Origin: Candidatus Eiseniibacteriota bacterium
Lineage (GTDB): Bacteria; Eisenbacteria; RBG-16-71-46; CAZEPH01
Assembly: GCA_044229145.1 (NCBI GenBank)
Contig: JBGATO010000033.1
Span: 1 to 39,387, forward strand
Length of the DNA: 39,387 bases
Reading direction: 5' to 3'
Part shown: piece by piece, positions 3,003 to 34,769 of the stretch
How positions within the stretch are numbered: the stretch's first letter is position 1
Layout: each line of letters opens with the position of its first letter
Program-made: the position numbers and the translations under genes
Notes under the pieces: model-generated
Told to the model about the DNA's origin: nothing
The model's database searches: none
Seen by the model: the letters and a program-made list of their open reading frames with translations, nothing else

Positions 3003-3092
3003 TTACGCGATCTCCAACGTCCGCAACCGGTTCAGCGCGGCCGCCAGCTCGTGGCGGCGGAATTCGGCGAATCCGCCGGCTCCGCGCTTCAT
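3003..3092 (-). pseudogene. 29-codon remnant of the 3' end of a COG3044 ABC-class ATPase gene (MKRGAGGFAEFRRHELAAALNRLRTLEIA*), ATGA-overlapping the stop of the FG-GAP gene
   Basis: Its translation matches the extreme C-terminus of the full-length ATPase at 5726..7504 (...PAGGYAEFRRHELAAALNRLRTVKTR*). Nucleotide identity is ~85% over ~70 nt, and most differences are synonymous. Confidence 0.4.
3017..3085. repeat. Direct repeat copy A (~70 bp, ~85% identical to 5741..5810) flanking the FG-GAP gene
   Basis: Shared core gtccgcaaccgRttcaRYgcggSSgccaRctcgtgRcgRcggaaYtcSgcgWaKccgccggc is seen in both places. The two copies bracket exactly one gene. Confidence 0.6.
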
Positions 3093-5608: not shown

Positions 5609-5725
5609 GCAAGGCTCGCGGACGAAGGGCGACGTGGCGTGTCTAGGGAAGCCCATGGACACGAACGTGTGACAGCATACCACTCCATCCGTCGCGAGTG
5701 AAAGTCTGGAGCTATGCGCCCTCGC

Positions 5726-7626: not shown

Positions 7627-8221
7627 GCATCCCCACACCAAGGCCGGTGGCATGCCGTCTGGAAGGTGCGCAGTTCCGGAGCAACGGACAGTGGCTCGGC
7701 TGGCTACCCACCATGTCGCGGGCATAGCAGGGAAGTTGTGAAGCTGTCCCGTGTTGCGTTGTCCTTCGTGATGCTAGCGCTGTGTTCCGGGATCCGCTCG
7801 AGGCGTCCCGTTGCCCGGCTATCGTGCAGACCGCGTGCCACCGCTGCAGTTCATGATGGCCGGCACGCGCCGAGCCCACGTTTTGCCGCACGTGAGAGGC
7901 GCCGATGCGACCGCTGGTTCCCGGCTCATGCGCTGGAAGTACGCGAGTTAGCCGCGGTGGGTGCGAATTCACACGGGGAGCAGGCGGAGGTGCCGCCGCG
8001 CGGCCGGCGCGGGCCGTGGGGATGGCCCGGCGGGCATTCCGCATCGTGCATGGCGCGCGAGGGGAGGGCGTTTCGCACGGCATCGGCGCCGGAGCACCTC
8101 GTCCATCGGGAAGGATACTTCGCGCCGGCGGCACGACACTTCCACGCGGCGCCTGCCCCACGCGTGCCGGCGCCGGCGTCGCCGGACGCAACGCGGCGCG
8201 CGAGCGGCCGATACCAGAGAC

Positions 8222-11200
8222 ATGCGCTTGCCGACACAGCCTCGTCGTCTGCGTCGCGTGGCTTCCGCCGCGCGTCGGCCCACGTGGGCGCTGCTGATCG
8301 CTCTTTTGTCATATGCGCGCGGCGTCGACGCCGCGCCGAGCCGGGTGGCAGGGCCGCCGCCCGTCGTCGTTCGCCCCACGGATCCGGGGCCGCTGCTGCG
8401 AGACTGGCGTGCCGCTGAAGATGCCAAGACGCGCGCCGAGGGTGCGCGTCTGGCAGCCGCCGAGGCCGAGGCGCGGTCCGCCGGCCACGCGCGCCTCGCG
8501 GCATCCTATGCCGCCGCACGCCAGCGGCTCGCCCTGCGCTTCGCCGCGCCGGCGGTGCGCGGCGCCGCGCGTCGTCCGGCCGTCGCGTCCGCGTCCGCCG
8601 CCGGGACCATGCTTGCGCCCGCGGCGTCCGGCCCCAACCTGGCGGCGTACATCCCGCCGGGCTGGAGCGATGTGCTGGTGCCGCGTAACGACACCCTCTC
8701 CGCCGGCTCCGCCGTCATCGTGCCGGACTCGCTGCAGGGCGGCGCCAGTCTGTTCTTCCTCAACTTCGGCGAGACCAACAGCGGCGATGCGGCGACGCCC
8801 GCCTTCACCGATTCGCTGCTGCTCGACAACGCCGCGCTCACCACCTTCGGCTACGGCGGATGGTCGGCCGGCACCGTGACGGTGCAACGCAATCTCACCA
8901 TCATGAAGGCGATCGGCGGCGGGCGGCACACGCTCACCATGGTGCGCGACGCCAAGCGCCAAGTGACCGAGAGCGACGAAACCGACAATCGCTCCGATGT
9001 CCAGTACCTGTGGTCGCCGACTTCCCTGACGACGAACACGCCGGTGTCGCACGCCAAACCGCCGGCGCGCGGTACGCTGGCGTATCCCAACTGCGACGGG
9101 TACCGCGCGACCCAGAACTGGTGGGGCGCCATCGCCCTCACACCCGCCAACGCGGGCGATGACGAAGATCTCGCGCTGTTCACCGACTACCTCGACCCGA
9201 TCAACAGCTTCATGGACGAGGCGGCATTCAGCGGCGCCGGTGCCGGCTTGAGCGATGCGGTGATCGTCAACGGCAACGTCGCCGGTCAGAAGTCGACGGT
9301 GTATCCCGGCGTGACGTGGCCGGGCGGCAGTGCCGGCACCTATCAAATCGAAGCCACCGCCAACGACACGACGTTCCTCGCCGCCGGGCACTACGGCCCG
9401 TTCTCGTTCGGTGCCAACAGTCTGGTGCGCATCTACGAAGTCTCGCTGGCGCCCGGCGACTGGAACATCCGGTTGAAGAACTCCGGCGCCGCCGATCTCG
9501 ATTTCGCCATCATGCCGCCCGACATGGCGTACATGAAGAAGACCGACGCCCTGTTCTACGCGTCGGGCAACGGCGCGGGACAGGACGAATCCTTGTTCGT
9601 GCACGTCGGCGGAACGGTGGCGGCCTATTACGGCTTGCTCGTGCTGAAGCACGGCTCCGCCGACATCCCGGCGACCGCGACGTACGAGTTCTACATCGAC
9701 AACACGCCGCCGGTGGTATCGCAGTTGACGTGCGATAAACCGTCGTGGACGACGACGAACCAGTTCGCGTTCTCGTGGACCGCGAGTGATGCCGAGACCG
9801 GCGTGCGCTACGCCGCGTATTCCACCAACGGCGCCGAGACGCAGACGCAGCTGTCGTCGGTGAGCGGCGCCTTCGCGTACACGCACGGTGCCAACACGTT
9901 CTCGGTGCGCGCCGCCAACACCGCCGGCGGCTCGAGCGCGGCGCAGAGCGTGACGTTCTATTTCGACGGCAGCGCGCCGGCGACCACGGTGGGCGCCTTG
10001 CCCGCGACGATCTCGGTGGCCGATTCCATCTCGCTGCACTGGCACGCCAGCGACCTCGGCAGCGGCGCCACCACCTACGACATCGACTACAAACATGCGC
10101 CCGGCGGACAGTGGGCGCGCTGGCTCACCGCGATCACCGACACCGCGCGCGTGTTCGGCGCGGCGGCGCCCGAGCCGTTGCAGGTGGGCGTGACGTACGC
10201 ATTTCGCATTCGCGCGCACGACCTCGCCGGCAACGTCGAAGCATGGCCGGCCGACGATTCGTACGGCGATGTGTCGACCACCGCGATCCTGGTCGACAAT
10301 TCGCCGCCGACGTTGACATCGTTCAGCGTGTCGCCGCAGGTGTGGAGTAATGCGAACTGGTTCACGGTATCGTGGGCGGGGCTCGATAGCGAGTCCGGCA
10401 TCGCCTATTACGCGTACAAGACGAACGGCGCCGAGACCCAAACCACGGCGACCACGATGGCGGGAGCGTTCGCCTATCACGAAGGCCAGAACACGTTCAC
10501 GGTGCGCGCGGTGAATGGGGTGGGCGCGACCTCGACGTCGCTCACCGACACGCTCTATTACGATCCGACGTTGCCGGTGTCGGTGGTGACGCAGCTGCCG
10601 GCGACGACCAGCGACGCGACGCCGCTGGTGCTCAACTGGAGCGGTTTCGACGCGACCTCCGGTATCGGCGGCTACGATGTCGAATACCGCATCCAGCCGA
10701 GCGGCACGTGGACCGCGTGGCTCACCGCGACGACGCAGACGAGCGCGACCTTCGCGCCGGGCTCGTGGTCCTACAACTCGGTGTACGCGTTCCGCGTTCG
10801 CGCCCGCGACCGGGCCGGCAACACGGAAGCGTGGCCGGCGGACCAGAACAACGGCGACACCTACACGACGGTGACACAGCAGACCGCGGCCCCGCCGGAC
10901 GAACGCCCGCCGGCGCCGGACGCCCAACCAAGCTGGGCCCCAGGCGTGGTGGCGATGTTGGCGGCGCCGTCGCCGTCGCCGGCGCGCGGCGTCGCGCAGG
11001 TGCGCTTCGCGGTGCGCGAGGCAGGTCCGGTCACCGTCGACGTCTGGAGCGCGGGCGGGTGGCCGGTGCGTACTCTGTTTGCCGGCGATGCGGTTGCAGG
11101 CAGTTCGGTGATCCGGTGGGACCTTCGTGACGCCGCCGGCCGCGACGTGCCGAGCGGACTCTACGTCGTGCGATGCCGCGCCGCCGGCCGCACGTTGTCG

Positions 11201-11224
11201 CAGCGCCTGACGATCGCGCGCTGA
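8222..11224 (+). CDS. Large secreted cell-surface protein (~1000 aa): signal peptide, CARDB-like domain, two tandem ~190-aa Ig-like double modules, Pro/Ala linker, C-terminal FlgD-Ig-like/T9SS-type domain
   Basis: ATG at 8222 (MRLPTQPRRLRRVASAARRPTWALLIALLSYARGVDAAPS). The ORF-track start at 7961 is an R-rich extension. CARDB-like signature ...VTESDETDNRSDVQY. The internal duplication runs DNTPPVVSQLTCDKPSW...GVRYAAYSTNGAETQ...FRIRAHDLAGNVEAWPADD then DNSPPTLTSFSVSPQVW...GIAYYAYKTNGAETQ...FRVRARDRAGNTEAWPADQ. The C-terminus ends SGLYVVRCRAAGRTLSQRLTIAR. Confidence 0.75.
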   Translation: MRLPTQPRRLRRVASAARRPTWALLIALLSYARGVDAAPSRVAGPPPVVVRPTDPGPLLRDWRAAEDAKTRAEGARLAAAEAEARSAGHARLAASYAAARQRLALRFAAPAVRGAARRPAVASASAAGTMLAPAASGPNLAAYIPPGWSDVLVPRNDTLSAGSAVIVPDSLQGGASLFFLNFGETNSGDAATPAFTDSLLLDNAALTTFGYGGWSAGTVTVQRNLTIMKAIGGGRHTLTMVRDAKRQVTESDETDNRSDVQYLWSPTSLTTNTPVSHAKPPARGTLAYPNCDGYRATQNWWGAIALTPANAGDDEDLALFTDYLDPINSFMDEAAFSGAGAGLSDAVIVNGNVAGQKSTVYPGVTWPGGSAGTYQIEATANDTTFLAAGHYGPFSFGANSLVRIYEVSLAPGDWNIRLKNSGAADLDFAIMPPDMAYMKKTDALFYASGNGAGQDESLFVHVGGTVAAYYGLLVLKHGSADIPATATYEFYIDNTPPVVSQLTCDKPSWTTTNQFAFSWTASDAETGVRYAAYSTNGAETQTQLSSVSGAFAYTHGANTFSVRAANTAGGSSAAQSVTFYFDGSAPATTVGALPATISVADSISLHWHASDLGSGATTYDIDYKHAPGGQWARWLTAITDTARVFGAAAPEPLQVGVTYAFRIRAHDLAGNVEAWPADDSYGDVSTTAILVDNSPPTLTSFSVSPQVWSNANWFTVSWAGLDSESGIAYYAYKTNGAETQTTATTMAGAFAYHEGQNTFTVRAVNGVGATSTSLTDTLYYDPTLPVSVVTQLPATTSDATPLVLNWSGFDATSGIGGYDVEYRIQPSGTWTAWLTATTQTSATFAPGSWSYNSVYAFRVRARDRAGNTEAWPADQNNGDTYTTVTQQTAAPPDERPPAPDAQPSWAPGVVAMLAAPSPSPARGVAQVRFAVREAGPVTVDVWSAGGWPVRTLFAGDAVAGSSVIRWDLRDAAGRDVPSGLYVVRCRAAGRTLSQRLTIAR

Positions 11225-11302: not shown

Positions 11303-13732
11303 TTAGCGCACCATCATCACCCGCGCACTCGCCGTCCGCGTGCCGTCTTCCATGCGCGCGAGGTAGAGGCCGGCTGCCACGGTGGTGCCGTCATCCGCGC
11401 GACCATCCCAGAGCAATCCGCTGTCGCCGGTCTTGGCGGCCAGCGTGCGCACCGGGCGACCCGCCACGTCGTAGAGGCGGACGGTCATCGATCGCGCCGC
11501 CGGGGAGCCGAACGCGAGGGTGGTCGAGGCACGCGTCACGGCGGGGCGCGCCGTCAGGCTCCACGCATTGCCGGCACCCTGCATGTCCGCGCTCGCCGGG
11601 GCCACCACCGGAATGCTCCCGGTGATCGAGTTACCCGCGTCATCCGTCACCGAGTAGACCAGGACACCTTCCGCGAGGCCGGGAAGCGGCAGGCGCGCGA
11701 CGCCAGCGGCATCACTGTAACGATTCACCTGCACGTCGTTCCGCGCCGCGGCCGCGTGGCTGCTTTGCGACCCGAACTGCACCGCGGACACCTTGGCGTT
11801 CGGCACCGGGTTGTTCTGGTCATCGAGCACGATCCAGTCGAACGGCGGCGTCGTCGGACAGTCCGGGCACGCCGGGATCTGGTTCGGCACGAGCACCGAG
11901 AACGGCATCGGGTTGCTGCGGCGGATCGACATTTCGGGGTCGCCGAGCAGCAAGTACATCCACGGGTTGTCGCTGCTGTAACCGGTCTCCACCCACCACT
12001 CGGCGTTCTCGATGGCGTGCGACTGCACGACCAAGCCTTCGTCGTAGACGCCGCGGAATAGGCGCTTGTCGAGTTCGTGGTTGGCGCTGGTGAACGACGC
12101 CTGGGTGGCGCCGTAGAACGACACCGCGCCATTCGCGCCCTGCTCCATCCAGTGCTCGGCGAAGCAGTCGGTGCTCGAGAGCTTGGCGTTCGAACACGCG
12201 ATGCCCCACACCACCGGGGTGTGCGTGTTGAGCAGGCCGTCGACCAGCGTGCTGGTGTAGCTCTCCGGGACTTGGTTCCACGAGGACCACGAGCTCGACG
12301 ATCCGTGACCGCGGTAGCACACCAAGCCGCGTCCCGCATTGATATCCGCCGTCACATCCGCGTCATCGACACCGACCTGCGAGCCGTACTGCGTGTGGAA
12401 CGTCGGCACCGCCTGCGAGTACGGATAGGTGCGCACTTCCTCCTGGCAGCCTTCGTACTTGTCCGGCGCGTCTTCCTTGTGGGCGATCAGCGTGACGTCG
12501 TCGAGCCACTGCGCGAGCAACGGCATGTGATCTTCGTAGTCGAGGATGCGCTCGACCTGCGAGGCGCAGTCGGCTTCGTCGTCCACCGACAAGCGGCCGA
12601 CGTAGACTTCCTCGGCGAGATCGTCGATGCCGTCCTGGTCGGCGTCACCGTACATGTCGTCGGTTTGCGACGAGTCGGGCGACAAGCAGGTCGGCAGCAC
12701 ATCGACATCGCCCACCAGCAGGCAGTAGTGATCGCGCTCCTGCGGCGTCGCGGCGTACCACGCTTCGACGGTGTCGCGGATCGACGTGCAGGTGTTGCCG
12801 GCGCTCGGAATGACGCGCAAGGCGACCTTGAATCCGCGCGCCTTCTTCTGGTCGATGAGCGGCTGCAGTTCGTCGGCGTACTGGCTCTCGTAGACGAACA
12901 AGAAGTCGCCGTCGTACGAGATCGTGTTGATCGGGAAGTACGGCGCGACGGTCGGCCAGTTGACGAGACGCGTCTCGCATTGCGCGATGCGGTGCTTGGT
13001 GGTTGGGGGACGCGTGGTGACGCTTCCTGAGTGCGTGAAGGTGTAGCGGACCTTGCTGGGGACCTCGAGCACGCCCGTTGCCGGATTCCAGCGCACCGGG
13101 AACACGCGGCCGTGCGCCCACGGGATGGTCGCAAGCATCCGCTGGCGCGGCGCGCTCCCCGTCCCGGTGACGGACGGAAAGGAGGTCTGCTGGCCGTAGA
13201 TGCCTTCGTCGCGCGTAAACTGCAAGGGATGGCCGTCGACCGGTTCGGTTTCCGGCAACTCCTGCGGCCACACGCGGAAGCCGCTGTAGGTGTGCATGTC
13301 GAAGGGCGACGCCTGCGTCAGCGTCGCGGCCCCAGCGCTGGTTGCCAACCCGATCGCTGCCTCCATCGCAGGCAGCGCCGGGGCACCGACCTGCCCGATC
13401 GGCGCCATCCCGGGGAACTTGAGCTGCTGATAGGTCAGGCCATCAGGACCTTGGATCTCCTCGACCCAGAATCCAGCGATGTGAACCTCCACCACCGTCT
13501 GCTGCGGCGACGATGCCGCGCGGTCGAGCACGATCGTGGAGGGTGTACCGGGGGCCGCGCCGCTCACGACGTCGATCCAGTCGCCGTGCGTTGCCCACGC
13601 GGTGGCGGACAGCAGGGTCGACGCGGCGATACTCATCAATGCCAGGCCCAGCCGGCGGCTGGCGCGGGGAGCGCGGAACGGCAGGGGACGAAACACGGTG
13701 CACCTCCAGTGAATTGTCGCGCGGCGCGGCAT
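11303..13732 (-). CDS. Secreted peptidase C25 (gingipain-like cysteine protease) family protein with C-terminal FlgD-Ig-like/T9SS-type domain
   Basis: C25-like core VCYRGHGSSSSWSSW ... PVVWGIACSNAKLSSTDCFAEHWME (His in GHG, Cys in IAC-S). Long Arg-rich signal peptide ...RRLGLALMSIAASTLLSATAWA. Start chosen at the ATG preceded by GAGGTG (13732). Alternatives are GTG at 13768 and ATG at 13636. The C-terminus ends AGLYLARMEDGTRTASARVMMVR. Confidence 0.7.
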   Translation of the reverse strand: MPRRATIHWRCTVFRPLPFRAPRASRRLGLALMSIAASTLLSATAWATHGDWIDVVSGAAPGTPSTIVLDRAASSPQQTVVEVHIAGFWVEEIQGPDGLTYQQLKFPGMAPIGQVGAPALPAMEAAIGLATSAGAATLTQASPFDMHTYSGFRVWPQELPETEPVDGHPLQFTRDEGIYGQQTSFPSVTGTGSAPRQRMLATIPWAHGRVFPVRWNPATGVLEVPSKVRYTFTHSGSVTTRPPTTKHRIAQCETRLVNWPTVAPYFPINTISYDGDFLFVYESQYADELQPLIDQKKARGFKVALRVIPSAGNTCTSIRDTVEAWYAATPQERDHYCLLVGDVDVLPTCLSPDSSQTDDMYGDADQDGIDDLAEEVYVGRLSVDDEADCASQVERILDYEDHMPLLAQWLDDVTLIAHKEDAPDKYEGCQEEVRTYPYSQAVPTFHTQYGSQVGVDDADVTADINAGRGLVCYRGHGSSSSWSSWNQVPESYTSTLVDGLLNTHTPVVWGIACSNAKLSSTDCFAEHWMEQGANGAVSFYGATQASFTSANHELDKRLFRGVYDEGLVVQSHAIENAEWWVETGYSSDNPWMYLLLGDPEMSIRRSNPMPFSVLVPNQIPACPDCPTTPPFDWIVLDDQNNPVPNAKVSAVQFGSQSSHAAAARNDVQVNRYSDAAGVARLPLPGLAEGVLVYSVTDDAGNSITGSIPVVAPASADMQGAGNAWSLTARPAVTRASTTLAFGSPAARSMTVRLYDVAGRPVRTLAAKTGDSGLLWDGRADDGTTVAAGLYLARMEDGTRTASARVMMVR

Positions 13733-13835
13733 CGCACCTCGATACCGTAGTCCGCGAGCGTACGGCACCTATGTCGCCGGAGGCCTGTAGACGTTGGCAG
13801 AAATCGCAACAATACGACAATTGCTGGAACGGCAA

Positions 13836-18543: not shown

Positions 18544-19068
18544 CTACCGGTACAAAGCCTTCACAGCTCCCCAACTGCGAAGCTTGACCGGCACTGCATC
18601 GAACGCGAGATCGCCGCAGGCGATGTCGGCGTGGTGGAGAATGGGCAGGATGCGGCCCTTCTGACCGCTCGCCGTGTCCATGTGCGAGGCGGCGTGCAGC
18701 ATTACGTGGTGCACGCCGGCGAGCAGCTCGGCGACTTGCTCCGGCGTGAGCTGCACGGTGCTGGTCTGCGCGCCGTCGCCGTCTGCGTCCGTACACACAG
18801 GTTCGAGGTCGAGCACTTCTGTGGTGTCCATGCTCGCGCAGTCGCCGGTGTGAACGTGAAGAGGCAGACACGCACTCGGGTCGGCTCCGGTGATCGTGAC
18901 GCTGGCGGTGAGCACGTTGTCGTCGCCGATGTGCAACGTGGCGTGACCGGTGAAGAACGGGTAGTCGTCGGACAACAGCGTGACGTTGCTGTCGTAGGAG
19001 GCAGCGGCTGCAACCGAGGCGGACAGCACGAGAGCGGCCGCGGCCGCGAAGGCGGTGACGAAACGCAT
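18544..19068 (-). CDS. Secreted CHRD-domain protein (174 aa)
   Basis: ATG preceded by AAGGAG at -11. Signal peptide MRFVTAFAAAAALVLSASVAAAAS. CHRD-like motifs LHVHTGDC ... VHHVMLHAASH ... GRILPIL (compare HIHxG ... YVNVHT ... GEIRGQI). Confidence 0.55.
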   Translation of the reverse strand: MRFVTAFAAAAALVLSASVAAAASYDSNVTLLSDDYPFFTGHATLHIGDDNVLTASVTITGADPSACLPLHVHTGDCASMDTTEVLDLEPVCTDADGDGAQTSTVQLTPEQVAELLAGVHHVMLHAASHMDTASGQKGRILPILHHADIACGDLAFDAVPVKLRSWGAVKALYR

Positions 19069-19430
19069 GGGGGCTCCTTTTCGCACGGTATGGGACGCCG
19101 CAGGGCGCGCGCGGGCGCGCGTCGACACGCAGCGGCGGACGAGAGACATGCGACGGTGCAGGAGTACACGGCGGTCGTGACGGGACCTCACGCACGGCGC
19201 GGGTGCCTGACGGCACCTCTGGAACGCCCGGGTCGCTGACGACACGCAGCGCGGCGCACACATCCTGTGAGGCGATGTGACGGCGCTCATCCGCCATGCG
19301 AGGTCGACGGTGCCGAACCTACGCGGTGCGCATGCCCTCAGGGCAGCGCCGCAGTCTCGAGGTCGGCACGCAAGGCCTCACGGCAGAACGTGTTTGCACG
19401 AATGTCGCGGGAATCGAGTGGCGAAAGGCG

Positions 19431-19841
19431 CTAGGCGGGAGGAGAGTGCGATGGGGCGAGGAGGTGGAGATCGCGGGTGAACGGCGCCACGTCCGCGACC
19501 ACCGGCAGGCGGTGCGCGGTGGGCGTCAACAGCGCGGCCAGGGAGGTGGCGGCCGAGGTGGCGTCTTGTTCGTCGCGCTCGCGCGAACACAACACGCACA
19601 CCGGCGCCGGCGCAGCCGACCGGACGACGACGCGGTGGCGCCATTGCGGCGTGCCGCCGCGCTCCGCCGCCTCGACGACCTCGTGGGCCTGGCAGAAGCA
19701 ATGGGTCGCCGAGAGTTGCGACGCACCGCGCGGGACCGCCCACGTTCCCGCCATCGACAGCACGTACAGCACGAGTGCCGCCCACGCCACGCAGGGGCGG
19801 GCGGACTGCGTGTGTCGACGTGCCAGCGAGTGCAGCGGCAT
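19431..19841 (-). CDS. Hypothetical small membrane protein (~136 aa) with an N-terminal TM helix and Cys pairs (HCFC ... CVLC)
   Basis: GC3 is ~88% in this frame versus ~78% in the overlapping plus frame. GAGGG lies 10 nt upstream of ATG (MPLHSLARRH...). No homology is recognisable. It lies in an otherwise gene-poor 1.1-kb island. Confidence 0.3.
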   Translation of the reverse strand: MPLHSLARRHTQSARPCVAWAALVLYVLSMAGTWAVPRGASQLSATHCFCQAHEVVEAAERGGTPQWRHRVVVRSAAPAPVCVLCSRERDEQDATSAATSLAALLTPTAHRLPVVADVAPFTRDLHLLAPSHSPPA

Positions 19842-20008
19842 GACGGGAGAACCCTCGGCGGGAAGACGCCTGCGAGCACGGGAATCGTGCAACGCCCCCA
19901 AAGCCTAGGGAGCCCGCGCGCCCCGCTTCAAGGAAATTCCACGCGAGAGCGCTCCTTTTAGACCATCGCGTCCACTGCGAAAGACGAACGGAGGCCGCTC
20001 CCATCGGC

Positions 20009-20058
20009 CTATATAAATAAAAGAAGGGCGACGGTCCGCTGGCGGCCCATCGCCCTTC
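20009..20058 (-). terminator. Rho-independent-type terminator for the minus-strand S8/CHAT transcription unit
   Basis: 9-bp stem GAAGGGCGA...TCGCCCTTC with a 17-nt loop. On the minus strand it is immediately followed by TTTTATTTATATAGG, the most AT-rich 15-mer in the window. Confidence 0.45.
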
Positions 20059-20428
20059 CCGAGGTTCACGGACGACAAAGGATGGCGGGACGGACTGACG
20101 CCCGTACACGCCAGGCAGAACGTCACGTCCAGACGATCCGAAGACCGCCCGGGTCCCGGCCACGATTCCCCACATCGAAGCCGGTACACGCGTCCGCGCC
20201 ATCCTGTGTCGTACCTGAGAGACTACGGCCAGGAGTAGCGCGGACCCGCGGAGTGATACATCGGGCGAGGCCTTTTTTTCATTCGCCGGCGACGGGCCGG
20301 GCCATCTCTGGCGAACCCATGCCGGCAGCGTCACGTGGGGGTGGAGCAGCACTGGCGCCACCGGGCGCCCACGCCGTGGGGCCGCGCTCCGCTGCGTGGT
20401 GGTGCGGTAACCGGAGGCGCCGCGCGAC

Positions 20429-21982
20429 TCAGCGGATGACGACGGCACGGCCGCGCGCGCGCGACACGCCATCGTCGATGATCCAGGTGTAGACACCGCT
20501 CGGCACGAGGCGGTCGCCGGCATCGCGCAGCGGCACCGTGTGCACGCTCGACGTCGCGGCGGACAACAGGCCGAGGCTGCGACGCACCACCGTGCGCCCG
20601 CGCACATCGAGCACGCGGCATTCGGCAGGCGCCGTGCGGTCGCTGGTGATGCGGAAGCGCAAGGCGTCGCGCACCCACGGTCCGGCAATCGCCTCGCAGG
20701 CGAAGCCGTGCGCCTCGGTCTCGTGCCGCTCGCCGGCCACCGCGCTGGTGGCGCCGAACATCGTCAACGCACCGTAGACGTCGAGGCGTCCGCTGCCCAA
20801 CTGCCCGGCGAATGCGGTGTTGCCCGGCAGCGCGTCGACGGCCACCGCGGACTGCTCGATGGCGGCCGCGATTTCGTCGCTGGTGCGGGCGGGAGCGAAC
20901 GCGTGCAGCAATGCCGCGGTGCCGGCGACGAACGGCGCCGCGAACGACGTACCGGCGCCCTGCGCGAAACCGCCGTCGCGATACGCCGAGTAGATCCCAA
21001 GCCCCGGCGCGCAGAGATTGGCACCGCTCGAATAATTGGCGAACGGCGCTTTGACGTCGAGGCTGTCGGTGGCGGTGACCGAGAACGCGTGCGTGCCGCG
21101 TGCCGGGAACTCGAGCACCGGCATCGAGTCGTTCCCCGCCGCCGCGATCACGAAGATGCCCTTCTCGTAGGCTTCCTCGATCGCATCCTCGATGCCTTCC
21201 GACTTGCCGCTCATCCCGAGCGAGAGGTTGATCACCGTCGCCTGCGCGTCGATCGCCTCGTAGAGACCCTTCATGATGGCGAACACCGAACCGATGCCCT
21301 CGTCGTCGAGCACGCGAATCGGCATGAGCGTGGCGGCCGGCGCGATACTGTGCACGATGCCCGCCACCATCGTGCCGTGTCCGGCGCCACCATCGACCTG
21401 TCCGTCCAGATTGTCGTCGAGGCCGTTGGCGTCGTCCTGCGGCGCGTCGTCGCCGTCGATGTAGTCGTGGCCGGGCACCAGCGTGCCGGCGAAGAACGGG
21501 TGCGTGAGATCCGCGCCGGTGTCGAGCAGCGCGACCTTGCTGCCGGTGCCCTGCGTCACCGTCAGCGCCAGCGGCAGACGCACGCGCGTGAACGCGCCTT
21601 GGTCACGCACCAGCGTGCTGTCGCCGATCGCGATCACCACGATTTGCCGCCGCGCCTCCGGCGTCTGATTGGCGAAGTTGTAGTCGCAGTAGCGCGAGTC
21701 GGTATCGCCGTCGAGGTCGACGGTCATGCTGTCCTGCAGCGCCGGCGAGTTGAGATGGAGCAGGTAGAGGCGGCGGCTGGGAATCGAGTCGACCACCGTG
21801 GCGTCCCACGTGGCGAGCAACATGGGGAGTGAACCGCCCGAGGTGAGCCGGATGAGGACTTCGTCGACAGGATAGTCGTCGGCGCCCGAGGCGCGCGCCG
21901 GCGAGGCGGCGGCGAGTCCCAGGAAGGCAAGCACGGGTAGGAGGCGCGCGAGGCCGCGCGCGAGCACGTGTCGTCGGGTCAT
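20429..21982 (-). CDS. Secreted S8 (subtilisin-family) serine peptidase with C-terminal FlgD-Ig-like/T9SS-type domain
   Basis: Start at MTRRHVLARGLARLLPVLAFLGLAAASPARASG, with GAGGAGA 6 nt upstream. The ORF-track start at 22843 is an R/S-rich extension. Catalytic triad in canonical D-H-S order: VALLDTGADLTHP / GHGTMVAGIV / GTSFAAPFVAGTAALL. The C-terminus ends SGVYTWIIDDGVSRARGRAVVIR. Confidence 0.8.
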   Translation of the reverse strand: MTRRHVLARGLARLLPVLAFLGLAAASPARASGADDYPVDEVLIRLTSGGSLPMLLATWDATVVDSIPSRRLYLLHLNSPALQDSMTVDLDGDTDSRYCDYNFANQTPEARRQIVVIAIGDSTLVRDQGAFTRVRLPLALTVTQGTGSKVALLDTGADLTHPFFAGTLVPGHDYIDGDDAPQDDANGLDDNLDGQVDGGAGHGTMVAGIVHSIAPAATLMPIRVLDDEGIGSVFAIMKGLYEAIDAQATVINLSLGMSGKSEGIEDAIEEAYEKGIFVIAAAGNDSMPVLEFPARGTHAFSVTATDSLDVKAPFANYSSGANLCAPGLGIYSAYRDGGFAQGAGTSFAAPFVAGTAALLHAFAPARTSDEIAAAIEQSAVAVDALPGNTAFAGQLGSGRLDVYGALTMFGATSAVAGERHETEAHGFACEAIAGPWVRDALRFRITSDRTAPAECRVLDVRGRTVVRRSLGLLSAATSSVHTVPLRDAGDRLVPSGVYTWIIDDGVSRARGRAVVIR

Positions 21983-22115
21983 GATGGTCTCCTCAGAGAG
22001 TATACCCGACGCGGGTTCGGACCCGACAGCCGCCAGGCGGTCCACTGCGTCAGGTGCACCAGGGGAGAGGACGTGGCGGCGAGGTCGGGTCCCCGCCGGT
22101 CGCGTGCGTGTGCGG

Positions 22116-25027
22116 TCATACGACGGCTCCGGGCGCGCCGAGGAAGCTGAACGGTGCCCAGAAGTACGGGTGCGCGTGGGTGGCGCGCACCGCGAGCGCG
22201 GCGTGGCGCAGCGCATCGTCGGCATCGTCGCCGGCGGCGAGGTGACGGTGGAGGTCGCCGGCCAGCGTCGCCGCCGCCGGGTCGTCCACCGGCCACAGCG
22301 AGACGATGAGCCGCCGCGCGCCGCGCGCCAGGAAGCCGCCCGCCAGCCCGAGCACATCGTCGCCGGCGTAGTGGCGGCCGGCGCCGGTTTCGCAGCCCGA
22401 CAGCACGACGAGCTCCGCGTCCAGCGACAGGCCGAGGATCTCGTACAGCGAGACCCAGCGGTCGGCGAACTTGAGCGCGGAGAACAGGGGATTGTCGTCA
22501 CGGAAGCGTCCGTGGGTGGCCAGGTGCAAGAGCCGCGCCTCCGGCGCGTCGCGCAGGAACGCCTCGGCCGTCCACTGCGGCGCGGTGCGCGGTTTCGCGC
22601 TGCGCCACGCCTCGGCGACGGCGTGCAGCTCGGCGGCGATCTGCGGCGCGTGCCGGTCCGCGGCGCCGCCGATCCATGCATCGCGCCGCCGCGACGCGCG
22701 CCTCTCGCGGAGCGCGGCGAACGCGCTGGCGCTCGGCACCGCGGTGACGCGCTGTGTCTCCCATAGCGCGTGCCCTGCGTGCTCGAACGCGCCGAACGGC
22801 AAGCGATGCAGTGGCCCGTGCGGCACGACGACGAGACGGCCATCCTCCGGCAGCGCGCCGAGCGGGGCGATGAGCGCGTCGAACGCCTCGCCGAGCGGCG
22901 CGCGCGCGCTGGCCGCCAGCCGCGCCGCGTGCGTCGCGAGTGCCGCGCCGCCCAAGCGCACGGTGTCGATTTGGAAGGCGAGACGCGCGGCCAGACGCTC
23001 TGCGTCGTGCAGCGTGCACGGCAACTCGATCAACTCGCGGTGGCGGCGATCCGCGCGCACCGCGTGCAGCCGGTCACGCACCGCGAAGTACTCGATCAGG
23101 ACTTCGCCCTCGTGCAACGTGCGCTGCACCTCGGCGAGCGTCCGCACCGGCGCGCCACCGCGCGCGCGTCCCGACGGCGCTTCCTCGCGGGCACGGCGAT
23201 GCAATGTGCCGACCTCGCGCTCCTGCGCGGCCACCCGCGCGCGCAACGTGCGCAGCTGTTCGGTGGACGGTGCGCTCTCCAATTCCTCGCGTTCGAGCCG
23301 CGCGGTGAACCACGCGAGCTTGCGCGTCGCGGCGGCGAGCGCGCGCGTGCCGCGCGCGGGCGGCTGCGCGGCGTCGTCGAGCAAATCGCCGAGCGCGCGC
23401 GCCCGCGCGCCCTCGATCCACGCGAAGGCCCGTGCAGTCGCGCGCGGCGATCGGCCGCCGTCGAGCACCAACGCGACGGCGCGCTCGGCGGCCTGCGCGC
23501 GGTAGGCGCCGAGCGCGTGCTTGTGTTCTTCGCCAGCGAGCGAGGCGCGGATCGTTTCGGCCAATCCGGTGGCGCGTAGGCACCGAGCGCGTGCTTGTGT
23601 TCTTCGCCGGCGAGCGAGGCGCGGATCGTCTCGGCCAATCCGGTGGCGCGCGTGTACGACGCCAGCGCGCGCGCGGCATCGCCGTCGGCCTCGTGGACGC
23701 GCCCGCGCAGCACCGTGCGCTCGAAGTCGGCGACGCGATCCGGCAGCCGCGCCGCGCCGCGCAGGAGCGCGCGGGCCTCGCGCGTGTCGCCGGCATCGAG
23801 CGCGAGTTCGCCGCGCAAGATGCGCGCGTGCGCGGCGCGCGTCGACAGGCCGCGGGCGCGCAGTGCGGCCTCGGCATCGGCGGCACGCGCGCGCGCGGCG
23901 TCGAAGTCGCCGTCCGCCGCGTCGAGACGCGCCAAGTGCACGTCGAGCGCCGCCACGCGCACGTGATTGCCTTCGGCGTGGAGGAACGTGCGCGCGGATT
24001 CCAACGCCTCGCGTGCCTCCGCGTGTGCGCCGGCGCGCTTGAGCGCCACCCCGAGCAGCGTGCGCGCGAGCGCCGCGTCGTAGCGCATGCCCGCCCGCTC
24101 GAAATGCGTCAGCGCCGCGCGCGCCGCGCGCTCGGCGTCGTCGGTCATGTTGAGACGCAGGTAGATTTCGGCGCGCGTCTGTTCGGCGATCGCCGCGAGC
24201 GACTTGTCTTCGGCGTCGAACACGCGGCCGGCGCGCGCGATGGCCGCGAGCGCATCCTGATAGCGCGACTGCAGCGCGTACACGGTCGCGAGGTCGAACT
24301 CGCCCTGCGCGGCAAGCGACCGCCAGCCCATCTCGCCGGCACGCGCGACGGCGGCGCGCAACAAACGCTCCGCCTGCTCCATCGCGTCGAGATTGGTGGC
24401 GACGACGCCTTCGTTGATCTCGAGGCCGACCACCACCGCGTCGCGGCCGCCGACCGCGGTGAGTTCGCGGCGGGCGCGCGCGTAGTAGCGCTTCGCCTCG
24501 GCATAGCGATCCATCGTGAAGCACAGGTTGCCGAGGTTCATGTAGAGGCGGCCGAGATAGGTGCGTTCGCGGTGACGGCGCAGCACGATCTCGGTGCGGC
24601 GGCCGAGCGCCATCGCTTCGTCGAAACGCGAGAGGTACATGAGCGTCGGGATCTCGCCGACGCTGACGCGCGCGGACTCGAGGTCGTCGCCGGTTTCGGC
24701 GTAGAGCCGCACGGTTTCGCGGTAGGTGTCGAGCGCCTCAGCGTAGCGGCCGAGGAAGAGCAGCGACTCGGCCTGCGCGCGCGAGGCCAGCGCGGCGGCG
24801 CGGCCGTCGCCGACGCGTGACTGCAACTTCGCCATGACGCGGGCCACGCGCAGGGCGCGCCGCGCATCGACGCGCACCAGGCGCTGCACGGCGTCGCCGA
24901 GCGCGCGGAAGGTGGCGAACGTGACCCGTGCCGGAGCGGCCGCGACGCATGCGCGAATGCTCCCCCGCTCGGCGATGCGGAGGAGCGATTCGGCCAGCGT
25001 GTCTGTGGCGGAAGCTCGTCGGGGCAT
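22116..25027 (-). pseudogene. TPR-repeat / CHAT-domain (caspase-like) protein gene, reading frame interrupted by a 74-bp tandem duplication. The N-terminal TPR part lies in frame 23576..25027 and the C-terminal CHAT part in frame 22116..23575.
   Basis: N-terminal TPR-like helical repeats (YAEALDTYRETVRLYAETGD, YAEAKRYYARARREL, ...). C-terminal CHAT core ...LLHLATHGRF...VVLSGCETGAG... holds the His/Cys dyad. The two ORF-track ORFs 23096..25027 and 22116..24524 both translate TRATGLAETIRASLAGEEHKHALGAY across the duplicated unit. Deleting one 74-bp copy restores a single ~945-aa ORF. Confidence 0.6.
23502..23649. repeat. 74-bp tandem duplication (2 copies, 71/74 identical) inside the CHAT gene
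   Basis: Copy 1 (23502..23575): gtaggcgccgagcgcgtgcttgtgttcttcgccagcgagcgaggcgcggatcgtttcggccaatccggtggcgc. Copy 2 (23576..23649) differs at 3 positions (g/a, a/g, t/c). All three differences are synonymous in the CHAT frame. 74 is not a multiple of 3. Confidence 0.8.
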
Positions 25028-25090
25028 GGGGTGTCGGCTCCGCCCGGCGGCGCGGGGTCCGTCGCCGGGCTCAGGGACGTCGCGGAGGCG

Positions 25091-25726
25091 CTAGGGCAGC
25101 TCCAAGCCGGGCAACGTCACCTCGGCGCCGGCGGTGCCGACGACGATGGAGTACCGGCCAGGGCCGACCGCGTCGAAGGAGAATTCGCCGGTGGCGTTCG
25201 ACATCGCATCCCTGCCTGCGCCGCCATCGGGGCACAACCGGACGGGCACTTCCTCGACGTGACCATCGGCGGCGAGGATCTGGCCCATCACATCGTACGC
25301 CGCGCGCGTCGTGCCGCGGCTGATGCGCACCGTGTAGCGGTCGTCGTCCCACTCGTAGACGAGCTGGCGGACCGGCGCGACCGCGGCGCTGCGCACACCG
25401 GCCAATGCCGGTGTCGCGCCGGAGTCGAGCAACAACGAGGCGATACGCGCGGCCACCGCTTCGACCTGGGCCACCACCTCGCGCACCGTGTCGGCGCGGC
25501 GGGCGGCGCGCAGACGGCCGAGCGCCGCCTTCACCGTCGCGGCGGGCACCTCGGTCAGTGCGTCACGGCGCAGCAGGGCGAGGCTGTCCCGCACCCGGGC
25601 CGCCGCCGCGTCGCAATCCGCGCAGCCGGGCGACAGATGCGCCGTCACCGCCGCGTGAACCGCCGCGTCCGCCGTGCCGTCGAGGAACGACACCAACTCG
25701 TCTGCTGTCGGGTGCAACCGGCCCAT
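25091..25726 (-). CDS. Anti-sigma factor, ZAS type (HxxxCxxC zinc motif), with C-terminal carboxypeptidase-regulatory-like beta domain
   Basis: ATG preceded by AGGAGG at -12. The GTG at 25765 given by the ORF track is rejected. AHLSPGCADCD is the ZAS signature. C-terminal GEFSFDAVGPGRYSIVVG. Confidence 0.7.
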   Translation of the reverse strand: MGRLHPTADELVSFLDGTADAAVHAAVTAHLSPGCADCDAAAARVRDSLALLRRDALTEVPAATVKAALGRLRAARRADTVREVVAQVEAVAARIASLLLDSGATPALAGVRSAAVAPVRQLVYEWDDDRYTVRISRGTTRAAYDVMGQILAADGHVEEVPVRLCPDGGAGRDAMSNATGEFSFDAVGPGRYSIVVGTAGAEVTLPGLELP

Positions 25727-25829
25727 GAGCGGGACCTCCTGCCGAATCGGAACGTTGGGGCGCACCGTGCGCCGGAGAAGTGTTGCGCCGCGTCAGCCGG
25801 GTGATACATCGCCGGTTAGCGCCGCCGGG

Positions 25830-26411
25830 TCAGCGCTCGTAGCCGCGCAGTTCGAGCGCCGCGCGCAGCGATTCCAGGCAGCGCGCGCGCGTCGGCCCAA
25901 TCGACCCGATGGGGATGCCGAGCTGCTCCACGACGTCCTGATAGGCGAGCGGGGGATCGGCGATATAGAGCGCCCGCAGCAGGTCGCGGCAGCGCGGCCG
26001 GATGTCGTCGAGCGCTTCGTGCAACAGCTGACCGCGTTGGAGCGCCTCCAGAACGTCTGACGCAAGTGCAGTAACATCAACGACTTCCGAGCCAGTGTCG
26101 GGGTCGTCGAGGGTCACTTCCGGGCGGCGCTTCCGCATGTAATAGAGCGCCTGCCGCCGTGACACGCTGACCAGCCACGGCACCAGCCGCGATACGTCGC
26201 GCAGTGTCCCGAGCTTCTCGTACAGGGCGACCACCGTGAGCTGGAACACCTCGTCCGCGTCGCCGTACGCGCAGCCCGATTTCAAGATGCTGGAATACAA
26301 GAGGTTACCGTAGCGGCGCAGGAACTCGCCCCACGCCGCGTTCTGGCCGTCGAGGCAGGCAGCGACGAGATCTTCCACCGACGACTGTGGGGCGATGGGC
26401 GCGTGGGTCAT
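25830..26411 (-). CDS. ECF (group IV) RNA polymerase sigma-70 factor
   Basis: 193 aa. Region 2 FQLTVVALYEKLGTLRDVSRLVPWLVSVSRRQALYYMRKR. Region 4 ...ALYIADPPLAYQDVVEQLGIPIGSIGPTRARCLESLRAAL is the HTH. It is followed by the anti-sigma gene on the same strand. Confidence 0.85.
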   Translation of the reverse strand: MTHAPIAPQSSVEDLVAACLDGQNAAWGEFLRRYGNLLYSSILKSGCAYGDADEVFQLTVVALYEKLGTLRDVSRLVPWLVSVSRRQALYYMRKRRPEVTLDDPDTGSEVVDVTALASDVLEALQRGQLLHEALDDIRPRCRDLLRALYIADPPLAYQDVVEQLGIPIGSIGPTRARCLESLRAALELRGYER

Positions 26412-29887: not shown

Positions 29888-32406
29888 ATGCTCCCGCGCC
29901 CCGTGATCCTGCGCTGTGCCGCGCTCGCCCTCTGCCTGTGGTCCTCGAACTCCCACGCCGCGTGGCGCGATGACCTCGTGCGTCCCGGACTCGACCAGCC
30001 GGCCGATCGTCTGGTCGCCTATCGCGGCGGCGTCGTCGCGGCGGGCGACTTCACGCACGCTGACGGCCAGCCGGTGCCGCACCTCGCGTGGTGGAAGGAC
30101 GGACGCTGGCGGACGCTCGGCGGCGGCTGGTCGTTCGTGGGGGCGAGTTCCACCACGTCGTGGGCGTGGCAGGTGCGACGCATGGTGGTGTGGCACGACG
30201 AACTCGTGCTCGCCGGCAACTTCGCCTTGCGCACCGCCGAGGGCGACACGTTGCAATCCCTGGCGGCATTCGACGGCACGCGCTGGCACGGCCTCGGCGT
30301 GCTGAGCGCGCCGCCGCTCACCGGCGCGATCCCGCCGAGCGACACCCTCTACTACGCACTCGACCGCGAGATCTTCGACGCCTGCGTGTGGGGCGATAGG
30401 TTGGTGGTGGGCGGCCGCGACATCGTGCTCGCGGCCGACACGCTACCGGAGCGCCTCGCGGCGTGGGACGGCGCGCGGTGGACGGCGCTCGCGCTGCCGG
30501 ACGATGTCGGCTACGCGGTCGGTCTCGCCGCGACATCGCGCGAACTCGGCGTGATGTGCGGATATGCCTACGGCTCCAGCGCCGGCGACGCGACACTCGT
30601 GACGCTGGACGGCGCGGGCGCGCATCGCGTCGCGCCTCGCATGTGGTACGCCTCGCAGCCCGTCGCCTACCACGATTCTCTCTGGTGTGCCAGCGAGCAG
30701 CAGGTCGAGTTCCACGGCCCGTACATCACCGTCCTCCACCGCCTGGGCGCGAGCGGCCTCGATAGCGTGGCTTTCGTGTCGCAATCCCTCGGCACGCCTT
30801 CTCTCTTCGCCCTCCACGACCGCTTGGTGCTCGGCGGCGGCTTCTACGGGCCGGCCAGTTGTGCGTCGTGCGCGGCGTTCCCTCGCGCGCTCGCGTGGAG
30901 CGCCGCCGGCCTCGCGCCATTTCCGCCGAGCGGCTTCGAGGTGGATCTCGAACATCGCGGCGGCGTTCTGGACGCCGACGGGCACGTGTTCGTCGCGGGC
31001 GGTCAGTTGTCGCTGCGCGGCGACGTCTTCTTCGGCGAACTGCAGGGCGGCGACATCGTCATGGCGACGGCGGTGCCGGGTGGCGCCGGCCGGGGATCGC
31101 CGGTGCTCGCGCTGCACGCCACCGCGGAGCGCCTGTGGGCGGGCGAACTCGGGCACGCGACGTGGTGGGACGGCGCCGGATGGCGGTTCGCCAGGGGCGC
31201 TCCGGCGCCGGGCAGCGCCACGATGGCCAGCACGGAGGCGCCCACGGCGCGCGGCATGGTGCACGCTTTCGACGACGGCAGCGTGGTGCGCAGCACCGCA
31301 TGGCCCGCGACCGCCTCGGGCGACGGCGTGCGCGACGACGCGGAGTACGCCGCGTTCGATGACGCAGGTCGCGGTTGGTGCCGCTCGATCCGCGCGGCGC
31401 GGTGTGGCGCCAGGGCGGCGCTTCATCGGCGCTCGGCGGCCGCTCGCGCCTCACGGCAGGCGGCGGCGTGCGCTTGGGCAGCGTCGCAGTGTGGCGCGAC
31501 GGCCGGGTCGATCCGCTCGGCGGCGGCATGGAGGCGGACGGCGGCGCGCATCCGTGGGTCGCGGCGCTCGTCGCGCGGCACGACACGCTGATCGCCGGCG
31601 GCTGGTTTGCGCGCGCCGGTGGCGTCGCGGCGCACGGCATCGCGCGGTGGGACGGCGCGGCGTGGCATCCGCTCGGCAGCGGCGTCGCAGGTGACAGCGC
31701 GCGCGTCGAGGCCTTGCTCGACTGGCGCGGCGGGCTGGTGGCGGCGGGCGCGTTCGCGAGCGCCGGCGGCGTGGCCGCGGCGAACATCGCGGTGTGGGAC
31801 GGACGCGGCTGGTCGCCGCTCGGCGCCGGCTTCGACGGTCCGGTGTACGCGCTCACCGAATACCGCGGCGAAGTGATCGCCGCCGGCGATTTCACGCACA
31901 GCGGCGCGACGCCGGTGCGCGGCGTGGCGCGCTGGCGCGGCGGCGCGTGGCTTGCGCTCGACGACGCGGGCGGCGGCGTCAGCGGCGGCGCGGTGCGCGC
32001 GCTCGCCACCTGGCGCGGCGCGCTGTGGCTGGGCGGTGAGTTCACCGCCGTCGTCGACCACGAGGCCGCGCAGCTCTCGAGCTACATCGCGCGCTGGCGC
32101 GACGACGATCTCGCCGGCGACGACCTGCCGCCACGCCGCGCGCCACGCATCGTCGCGCTGAGCGGCCTGCCGACGCAGCGCATCTCGCGCGTCACCTACG
32201 ACCTGCCACAAGCCGGCATCGTGCGCATCGCGCTCTACGACATCGCGGGGCGACGGGCGCACGAGATCGCCCACGCGTTCCAATCGCCCGGCCCGCACAC
32301 CGCCGAGTGGCGCGCCGACGCGGCGGGGCTCACCTCCGGCGTCTATCGCCTGGTGATCGACGCGGACGGCATGCAGACGGCACGCGCCGTGGTGGTGGTG
32401 CGATGA
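29888..32406 (+). CDS. Secreted beta-propeller-like repeat protein (repeats of the ...AGGxFxxAGGVAAxxIAxWDGxxWxxLGxG type) with C-terminal FlgD-Ig-like/T9SS-type domain. Probable 1-nt frameshift near 31378.
   Basis: Signal peptide MLPRPVILRCAALALCLWSSNSHA. The repeat pattern continues seamlessly from the frame of ORF 29888..31591 (...AAFDDAGRGW) into the frame of ORF 31375..32406 (VPLDPRGAVW...) if one nucleotide is added at ggttgg|tgccg. The 29888 frame turns into R/A-rich junk until its stop at 31591. The C-terminus ends SGVYRLVIDADGMQTARAVVVVR. Confidence 0.6.
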
Positions 32407-34769
32407 GGGCGCGCAGGGCGATCGCCGCGTGTGTCATCGCCGCGGGCGCGTGCGCCGCCGCCGCGCAGGCGGCGCCGCGCTGGGAGCCGGTGCTCGACGA
32501 TCCGGTGCCGGTGAGCCGCTTCAGGGATGGCACGGTGCTGCGCGACACGCTGTACGTGTGCGGTCCGTTCGACCACGTCGCGGGCGGCGAGAGCGGGCCG
32601 GTGGCGGCATTCGACGGTGTGCGGTGGTCGGGCGCCGCGCGCGGTCTGCCACCGAGCGCGATTGGGCTCGGCGTGTGGCGGGACGACCTCGTGGTGGCGG
32701 TGCCGGTTGCGCACGGCGATTCGACGCAAATCTGGCGCCGCGCCGCTGGCGCGTGGACGCCGCTCGGCGGCGCGTTGCCCGGCTACATCGCGACGCTTGC
32801 CGCAGTCGGCGACACGCTCTATGCCGGCGGCCGCGCGCCCGCGGGGTTCCGCGCGATGCCGCCACTCGCGCTTCATGCGTGGACCGGCGCGGCGTGGGCG
32901 CCACGCGGCGGCGACCTCACCGGCGACGTCCGCGCGATCGCCTCGTTCCACGACCACCTCTACATTGCGGGATCGCTCGGCGGCCCCGAGGGCTTCGAAA
33001 CCGCCGGCGTCGCGCGCCGTGACGGCGCCACCTGGACGCTCGAACCCGGCCTGGTCGAAGGCCGCGCGCTCGCGGTGGCCGACGGGCGCCTCTGGTTGCT
33101 GGGCGAACTCTTGCTCGACGCGTCCGAGTACGCACCGGCCGATCTGGTGACGAGCACCGACGGCTCGACGTGGCAGGGCGCTGGCCTCGAAACCGTTCGT
33201 TACTGGGGCATCGAGCTTCCCCCACCGCGCGGCGGTCTCGTCGCGCTGCACGACACACTCGTCGCGTGGCTGCCGAGCGGTGTGGCGATGCGCCCGCCGC
33301 ACGGTGCGTGGCGCTCGCTCGCCGCGCATCAGTCGAACTCCGACCGCCAGGTCCTCGCCGCGCTGCGCGGCCAGATCCTGCTCGGGTCGATCATGGCCGG
33401 CGGCGCGTACGTGACGTTGGCGCGGCTGCGGTGGCCCGCCGGCGATGGCGGCGCACAGCCCGAGCCGGTGTCCGAACTGCCCGCGTCATTCCACGGCGCG
33501 CCGTTGTGCGGACTCGCCGTGCACGACGGCCTGCTGTTTTACGAAACGATGTACGGCGGCTCCGGCGCGTTCGACGGCCGGCGCCGCGTGATAGAGTCCA
33601 CACGCCCCATCGGCACGTTCTACGGATTGCGCGGCACGCTCGCCGAGATCGCGGGCGACCTCTACGCCGCGCGCCGCGTGTCCAGCGACGAAGACGATGG
33701 CCACGTCTCCGATGCCGGAATCTGGCGCGCCGGCGACGACGGCGACGCGCCCGATTGGCGCCTGCTGCCGCACACACCCACCGAGCCGCCGCTGCGCGGC
33801 TACGTCAACGACTTCGCCGGATGGAATGGCGGCGTGGCAGCCGGTGGCGCGATCTGGATCGGCCCGCGCGGCGACGCCGCGGTCGCCTGGCACGATGCCA
33901 CCGGCTGGCACGCGCTCGGCGGCGGCTTCGGCGACAGCTTCAACGCAAGCGTCTACGCGCTCGCCGTCTATCGTGGCGACCTCTACGCCGGCGGGCGCTT
34001 CACCTCCATCGGCGGCACGCCGCGCGCCGGCATCGCACGCTGGGACGGCGTTGCATGGCAGGACGTCGGCGGCGGCATCGACGGCGATGTCGAAGTCCTG
34101 CACGTCTTTGGCGATCGCCTGATTGCTGGCGGACGATTCAGCACGGCCGGCGGCGCGCCCGCGTCCAGCATCGCCGCGTGGGACGGCGCACGATGGTCGA
34201 CGCTCCCCGGCGGCACGCTCAGCGGCCGCGTGTGGGCGCTCGCCGACTTCGACGGCGACCTCATCGCCGGCGGCAGCATGCAGCTGGCCACGCCGCGCGA
34301 CACCACGCTCGGCATCGCCCGCTTCCACGACGGCGCGTGGCGGAGCATGGGCGGAGGCCTCAACGGCTCGGTGCGCGCGCTGGCGGTCTATGGCTCCGCG
34401 CTCTATGCCGGCGGCGAGTTCACCGACTCCCAAGCCAACGTCGACGGCGTGCTGCGGCGATGGACCGCGGACGGCGGCATCGCGGACGGCTTCACGCCGT
34501 CGCTGCGCGCGTCGGGCGACATGTCGCTGCGTGGCGCGGTGCGCGTCGCGTACTTCCTGCCACGTCCGGCGCAGACGCGCGTCCGCGTGTGCGATGTGCG
34601 TGGCCGCGTCGTCGCCACGCTCGACGACGGCAGGCGCGACACCGGGCAGCACACGGTGGAATGGGATCCACGCACGCAGGTAGGAGGTCCGCCTGCGTCC
34701 GGCGTCTACTCGATCGTCTTGTCCGCCGAAGGACGCACGTGGGCGCGCCGCGTGGTGTGGATGCGATGA
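32403..34769 (+). CDS. Secreted beta-propeller-like repeat protein, paralogue of the preceding gene, with C-terminal FlgD-Ig-like/T9SS-type domain
   Basis: The ATG overlaps the upstream stop (ATGA). Signal peptide MRARRAIAACVIAAGACAAAAQAAP. Repeats GGRFTSIGGTPRAGIARWDGVAWQDVGGG / GGRFSTAGGAPASSIAAWDGARWSTLPGG. The C-terminus ends SGVYSIVLSAEGRTWARRVVWMR. Confidence 0.75.
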   Translation: MRARRAIAACVIAAGACAAAAQAAPRWEPVLDDPVPVSRFRDGTVLRDTLYVCGPFDHVAGGESGPVAAFDGVRWSGAARGLPPSAIGLGVWRDDLVVAVPVAHGDSTQIWRRAAGAWTPLGGALPGYIATLAAVGDTLYAGGRAPAGFRAMPPLALHAWTGAAWAPRGGDLTGDVRAIASFHDHLYIAGSLGGPEGFETAGVARRDGATWTLEPGLVEGRALAVADGRLWLLGELLLDASEYAPADLVTSTDGSTWQGAGLETVRYWGIELPPPRGGLVALHDTLVAWLPSGVAMRPPHGAWRSLAAHQSNSDRQVLAALRGQILLGSIMAGGAYVTLARLRWPAGDGGAQPEPVSELPASFHGAPLCGLAVHDGLLFYETMYGGSGAFDGRRRVIESTRPIGTFYGLRGTLAEIAGDLYAARRVSSDEDDGHVSDAGIWRAGDDGDAPDWRLLPHTPTEPPLRGYVNDFAGWNGGVAAGGAIWIGPRGDAAVAWHDATGWHALGGGFGDSFNASVYALAVYRGDLYAGGRFTSIGGTPRAGIARWDGVAWQDVGGGIDGDVEVLHVFGDRLIAGGRFSTAGGAPASSIAAWDGARWSTLPGGTLSGRVWALADFDGDLIAGGSMQLATPRDTTLGIARFHDGAWRSMGGGLNGSVRALAVYGSALYAGGEFTDSQANVDGVLRRWTADGGIADGFTPSLRASGDMSLRGAVRVAYFLPRPAQTRVRVCDVRGRVVATLDDGRRDTGQHTVEWDPRTQVGGPPASGVYSIVLSAEGRTWARRVVWMR

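Follow-up and report, generated by a model that had tools for sequence, protein, structure and literature searches.

Spontaneous intragenic tandem duplications, which are formed by slipped-strand or microhomology-mediated events, place two head-to-tail copies inside an open reading frame (ORF) and split it when the unit length is not a multiple of three. Fresh duplications of this kind have perfect copies, and a direct repeat of a few bases usually lies at their ends. Slippage or recombination removes short tandem duplications at rates that exceed the build-up of base substitutions by orders of magnitude. Phase variation of the pneumococcal capsule by intragenic duplications has been reported for cap3A, cap8E and tts (Waite et al. 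2001, 2003, cited in PMC4022640); there, the duplication is reported to inactivate the gene and its precise excision to restore it, the duplications being exact and their high-frequency gain and reversion being demonstrated in culture. Adjacent copies of a locus are also known as errors of assembly. In metagenome scaffolds, overlapping flanks may be left unmerged and thereby duplicated (Chen et al. 2020, PMC7111523), and haplotype false duplications have been reported from diploid genomes, in some cases where a gap had been filled incorrectly (Ko et al. 2022, PMC9516828). In such cases differing versions of a locus become adjacent, look allelic and create a false frameshift, and the gene is restored when one version is removed; the published examples are usually kilobases long, stem from diploid genomes and show Ns or an unsupported depth gap.

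The 74-bp duplication described here interrupts a minus-strand gene for a TPR-CHAT protein of an uncultivated bacterium and breaks its reading frame. Like a spontaneous tandem duplication, it is a frame-shifting head-to-tail repeat inside an ORF, but its copies are 96% identical and the direct repeat at its end points is 1 nt (G) only, with GCGC-rich flanks that show a weak, gapped resemblance. Like the pneumococcal duplications, it would inactivate a gene that precise excision would restore, but the copies are diverged. Like heterotype false duplications and unmerged scaffold ends, it consists of two allelic-looking versions side by side, but the unit is 74 nt, the versions abut and the would-be haplotypes are those of metagenome strains. 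We consider the best reading to be a false duplication that arose in assembly or gap closing from two strain variants living side by side, in which case the frameshift would not be biological; we give it a probability of roughly 0.55.

The window, i.e. the whole 39,387-nt stretch of DNA analysed, has a G+C content of 70% and contains no N. The original prediction of two adjacent 74-nt copies with three silent differences was borne out by an offset-74 alignment and a codon comparison. The alignment showed three mismatches, all of them transitions (plus strand, copy 1/copy 2: 23508 G/23582 A, 23535 A/23609 G and 23556 T/23630 C), and the longest identical blocks between the copies are only 19-26 nt. 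The copies abut directly, and their junction is ambiguous by 1 nt because the identity runs one base on (23576 = 23650). The junction string GGTGGCGC/GTAGGCAC is absent from both single-copy alleles. Tandem Repeats Finder (TRF) analysis of the window reported this array as by far the strongest (period 74, 2.1 copies, 95% matches, score 278). When copy 1 was used as the query with up to 3 mismatches, exactly two sites were found in the whole window and none in 100 shuffles. A repeat search detected no second long high-identity repeat in the contig, and neither long repeats nor Ns that might mark scaffold joins were found elsewhere in it. The coordinates of all features are given in the table.

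Table. Positions of the features of the TPR-CHAT locus and of other features of the window.
Feature	Position	Strand	Remarks
Copy 2	23576..23649	-	5' copy in gene orientation; + strand alleles A/G/C
Copy 1	23502..23575	-	3' copy in gene orientation; + strand alleles G/A/T
Novel junction ...CCGGTGGCGC/GTAGGCACC... (+ strand)	23575..23576	.	1 nt microhomology (G 23576 = 23650)
N-terminal coding part, TPR region, residues 1-484	23576..25027	-	81% identity to orthologue P0001 residues 1-484
Out-of-frame tail, 159 aa, of the called 643-aa ORF (P0003)	23096..23575	-	Arg/Pro/Ala-rich read-through
C-terminal coding part, CHAT domain and stop codon	22116..23575	-	74% identity to P0001 residues 460-948
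Four-gene module in the window	20429-26411	-	Also L001 2132-8017 (Logan SRR32392773) and L005 4593-10647 (GCA_046590735.1)
ECF-type sigma factor (Sigma70_r2), first module gene	25830..26411	-	Pfam; conserved in relatives
CarboxypepD_reg-like protein, upstream of TPR-CHAT	25091..25765	-	Pfam; conserved in relatives
Subtilase (Peptidase_S8), downstream of TPR-CHAT	20429..21967	-	Pfam; conserved in relatives; C-terminal tail similar by eye to those of the secreted proteins below, Pfam giving only Peptidase_S8
TRF repeat inside the S8 peptidase gene	21362-21404		23-nt unit twice, 86% matches, indels; ORF intact and end-to-end with its orthologue
Segment downstream of the S8 gene	19905-20428		~520 bp with no convincing ORF; DNA up to 20241 alignable with L001 at ~70% identity
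Imperfect 29-nt tandem repeat	19173-19245		2.5 copies, 73% matches; apparently intergenic, between genes 18544-19068 and 19431-19904
Second frame-disrupted gene (beta-propeller)	29888-32406	+	-1 frame change between 31330 and 31417
First ORF of the beta-propeller gene	29888-31591	+	Signal peptide and beta-propeller repeats
Second ORF of the beta-propeller gene	31375-32406	+	Beta-propeller repeats and a C-terminal tail (no Pfam match to it) like the sorting domains at the ends of the secreted proteins nearby
Large secreted protein	3089-5683	-	FlgD_ig-like C-terminal domain
Large secreted protein	7952-11224	+	FlgD_ig-like C-terminal domain
Large secreted protein	11303-13768	-	FlgD_ig-like C-terminal domain
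Large secreted protein	32403-34769	+	FlgD_ig-like C-terminal domain

In the duplicated gene, the ORF starting at 25027 carries copy 2 in the correct frame (...YTRATGLAETIRASLAGEEHKHALGAY), where residues 460-484 read RATGLAETIRASLAGEEHKHALGAY. In copy 1, the same ORF is displaced by two bases from the correct frame, and it goes on through 159 codons of nonsense to 23096, and the resulting Arg/Pro/Ala-rich tail of P0003 is not a real protein sequence. Copy 1 is correct only in the frame that ends at the stop codon at 22116 and continues into the CHAT domain. It had been claimed that both ORFs encode one and the same peptide: the peptide is indeed encoded twice, but it comprises the 25 residues of RATGLAETIRASLAGEEHKHALGAY, the preceding T being present in the upstream copy only. 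A start codon proper to the CHAT half was sought, and only a TTG at 23564 that lacks a ribosome-binding motif was found, i.e. none that was convincing.

In silico removal of either copy gave an identical ORF of 945 aa, in agreement with the claim that one clean TPR-CHAT ORF results. The repaired protein has TPR repeats in its N-terminal part and a complete CHAT domain (PF12770) in its C-terminal part, the latter matching profile positions 2-288 of 289 with E = 3e-52 and 178 bits against a Pfam cut-off of 24. Two intact motifs, HLATHG starting at residue 810 and LSGCETG starting at residue 851, are conserved across 13 sequences and contain the conserved catalytic His and Cys of the repaired protein. 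No defect other than the duplication was seen in the 2.8 kb of the gene, and neither half contains an in-frame stop codon. In its combination of TPR repeats, CHAT domain and His/Cys dyad the repaired protein is like other TPR-CHAT proteins; nothing about it is unusual beyond the duplication.

The comparison with orthologues that had been suggested together with the original prediction gave a uniform result. All 12 aligned homologues are single ORFs of 946-996 aa with 31-78% identity (P0001, 78%; P0002, 60%; P0004-P0010, ~50%; P0011-P0013, 33-35%), each holds one copy of the segment, with the conserved motif SLAGEEHK(I/H)A, and the 74-nt insertion was found in none of the 12. Residues 1-484 of P0001 align to 25027-23576 and its residues 460-948 to 23576-22122 in another frame, so that the two alignments overlap at residues 460-484 and these 25 residues are used twice in the window. 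Since all 12 have one copy, the single-copy, intact TPR-CHAT gene is the ancestral and general state.

The gene belongs to a four-gene module, composed of genes for an ECF sigma factor, a CarboxypepD_reg-like protein, the TPR-CHAT protein and an S8 peptidase, which is conserved in three genomes; the other three module genes are intact in the window. The composition of the module suggests a sigma-factor-linked proteolytic system, in which the CarboxypepD_reg-like protein is possibly an anti-sigma or membrane partner. A second, independent assembly of the same population was also sought in the collections searched, and none was found. Among ~5.8 billion protein clusters, near-identity was seen for nothing but the 643-aa ORF of the contig itself, the next match being at 78%; scans of genome contigs and metagenome contigs returned distant matches only (31-33%), and an exact 26-mer gave no match against viral contigs.

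Outside the module, the large secreted proteins with a FlgD_ig-like C-terminal domain form a cluster whose contents include FG-GAP repeats, CARDB/fn3, a gingipain-type C25 peptidase and a beta-propeller; proteins with such ends resemble cargo that carries a C-terminal sorting domain. A second gene of the contig is disrupted in its frame. The two overlapping beta-propeller ORFs represent one gene, since both are covered by each of two full-length orthologues, P0090 (845 aa; 97% coverage at 49% identity) and P0091 (807 aa), and tblastn placed residues 1-492 of P0090 in frame 2 and its residues 518-834 in frame 1. The frame change is likely due to a 1-nt deletion near 31366-31380 (GGTTGGTGCC).

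The pattern of the three differences bears on the origin of the copies. When each copy of the TPR-CHAT segment is read on the minus strand in the frame proper to it, all three differences fall at codon position 3 and are synonymous (GGC/GGT for Gly, GCT/GCC for Ala and GAA/GAG for Glu), whereas a pseudogene formed by tandem duplication would have copies that are identical or that differ at random with respect to codon position. Under neutral models, the probability that three of three differences are silent was 0.019 for any change, 0.043 for transitions and 0.060 for GC-to-AT transitions. If a divergence of 3/74 had accumulated in place, the remainder of the gene should have acquired ~57-62 substitutions, along with ~0.8-1.3 nonsense mutations; no nonsense mutation was seen there, an outcome with P = 0.26-0.44 under in-place neutral divergence. 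Polarisation of the three sites with the DNA of the closest orthologue (L001) was possible at one site only, which reads GAA as in copy 1, and was uninformative. The silent-only pattern, the lack of nonsense mutations elsewhere and the instability of tandem repeats together argue that the differences predate the junction. As silent-only differences are unlikely under neutral decay and a tandem repeat should be lost before it could diverge by 4%, we infer that two selected alleles stand side by side, and the copies are best read as two alleles, each of which evolved under purifying selection in an intact gene. The preference of the original prediction for diverged alleles over a fresh duplication thus holds up, given these probabilities, the otherwise intact gene halves and the single-copy homologues. 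The allelic origin is supported in this way; it does not in itself show that the join was made by an assembler.

That the join was made in silico is nevertheless what we favour, because the allelic pattern, the clean repair, the near-absent microhomology, the documented classes of assembly error and the second frame-disrupted gene all point in this direction; the last of these fits an assembly that is less than perfect. The two 74-nt copies would be strain versions of one segment of a single-copy TPR-CHAT gene. Partial assemblies from co-existing strains may have overlapped by ~74 nt, the three mismatches may have kept the overlap from merging, and the pieces would then have been concatenated in scaffolding, gap closing, contig merging or long-read stitching, which would yield a heterotype false duplication. 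The adjacent copies differ as alleles do (three of three differences being silent third-position transitions), the segment is single in the 12 homologues and removal of one copy restores the 945-aa ORF, all as expected of a false duplication. In documented cases the copies are usually separated by a gap, and the lack of any N in the window counts against an artefact. De Bruijn-graph assemblers (MEGAHIT, metaSPAdes), the commonest source of contigs of metagenome-assembled genomes (MAGs), output a junction only if it is in the reads, and a pure artefact of such a graph is disfavoured because the junction string occurs in neither allele. The signature of a k-mer graph bubble was considered and rejected: the SNP-to-edge distances of 6 and 19 nt and the unit of 74/75 nt match no single default k. 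On balance, the duplication is most likely absent from the organism, which would itself carry a normal 945-aa protease gene.

The principal alternative, which we regard as possible but less likely, is a real tandem duplication in the population that has pseudogenised the TPR-CHAT gene and whose copies are allelic through recombination between strains. One copy and its flank could have been replaced later by the allele of a related strain through homologous recombination, or donor DNA could have been integrated in one step, by homology at one end and illegitimately at the other. Tandem duplications are common among spontaneous mutations, and one imported tract brings several silent allelic differences at once, with no long time needed. 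The junction lies in an N-free contig, which implies read support if a k-mer graph assembler was used, and the second disrupted gene on the contig could mean that accessory secreted and regulatory functions are decaying. On the other hand, two rare events would have to coincide within one stretch of 148 nt, or a single very rare one would be required there; microhomology at the junction amounts to just 1 nt; the gene shows no other defect over 2.8 kb in a module that is otherwise intact and conserved; and the insertion is present in none of the homologues. It is improbable, in particular, that a real duplication is the mark of inter-strain recombination by which a donor allele was joined beside the resident one, through homology-facilitated illegitimate recombination or because one copy of an earlier duplication was converted, with reversible inactivation of a sigma-factor-linked CHAT protease as the result.

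An old duplication whose copies drifted apart in place by three point mutations during neutral decay of the gene would be the simplest purely mutational account, and each of the three changes belongs to the commonest type of mutation, GC/AT transitions. We consider it very unlikely: the probabilities of three silent changes (0.02-0.06) and of no nonsense mutation elsewhere (0.26-0.44) give a joint value of ~0.005-0.03, and tandem repeats of such a size are established to be unstable over the time required.

It had also been proposed that the duplication is a reversible on/off switch, which inactivates the protease until the precise loss of one copy restores it. The ORF is restored exactly in silico by the loss of either copy, and the pneumococcal capsule offers a precedent. 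Known switch duplications are fresh and perfect, however, whereas the copies here differ at three sites, their identical blocks of only 19-26 nt would slow excision, and a duplication occurs in 0 of the 12 aligned homologues. The proposal of a switch therefore found no positive support, and the odds are strongly against it.

Least credible is a functional split gene with the TPR half and the CHAT half made as two proteins, for although each half has one copy in its proper frame, and selection on each copy in that frame would also explain the silent-only differences, the CHAT half has no plausible start (only the TTG at 23564), the TPR half would bear a nonsense tail of 159 aa and all homologues are fused.

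Two further candidates were rejected. The template and variable repeats of a diversity-generating retroelement do not fit, the differences running in mixed directions (G/A, A/G and T/C) and not being confined to the adenines of one copy, and no reverse-transcriptase domain was found in Pfam scans of the genes of the contig. A programmed frameshift or translational bypass does not fit either, as the shifted frame has, for 159 codons, no stop that could stimulate it and the homologues are without the insert; no Rfam element was found when one was sought.

A real duplication would be an ordinary case of gene inactivation, with the modest extra that its copies carry different alleles. The main value of the finding lies in quality control: MAGs could easily be screened for false frameshifts caused by strain variation if one looks for adjacent copies that are nearly identical, have a length that three does not divide, differ at silent sites only and leave a clean gene when one of them is removed. 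In the case of an artefact, the 643-aa protein in the database (P0003) is false, its last 159 aa being nonsense, and the CHAT protease would be wrongly regarded as missing from this organism.
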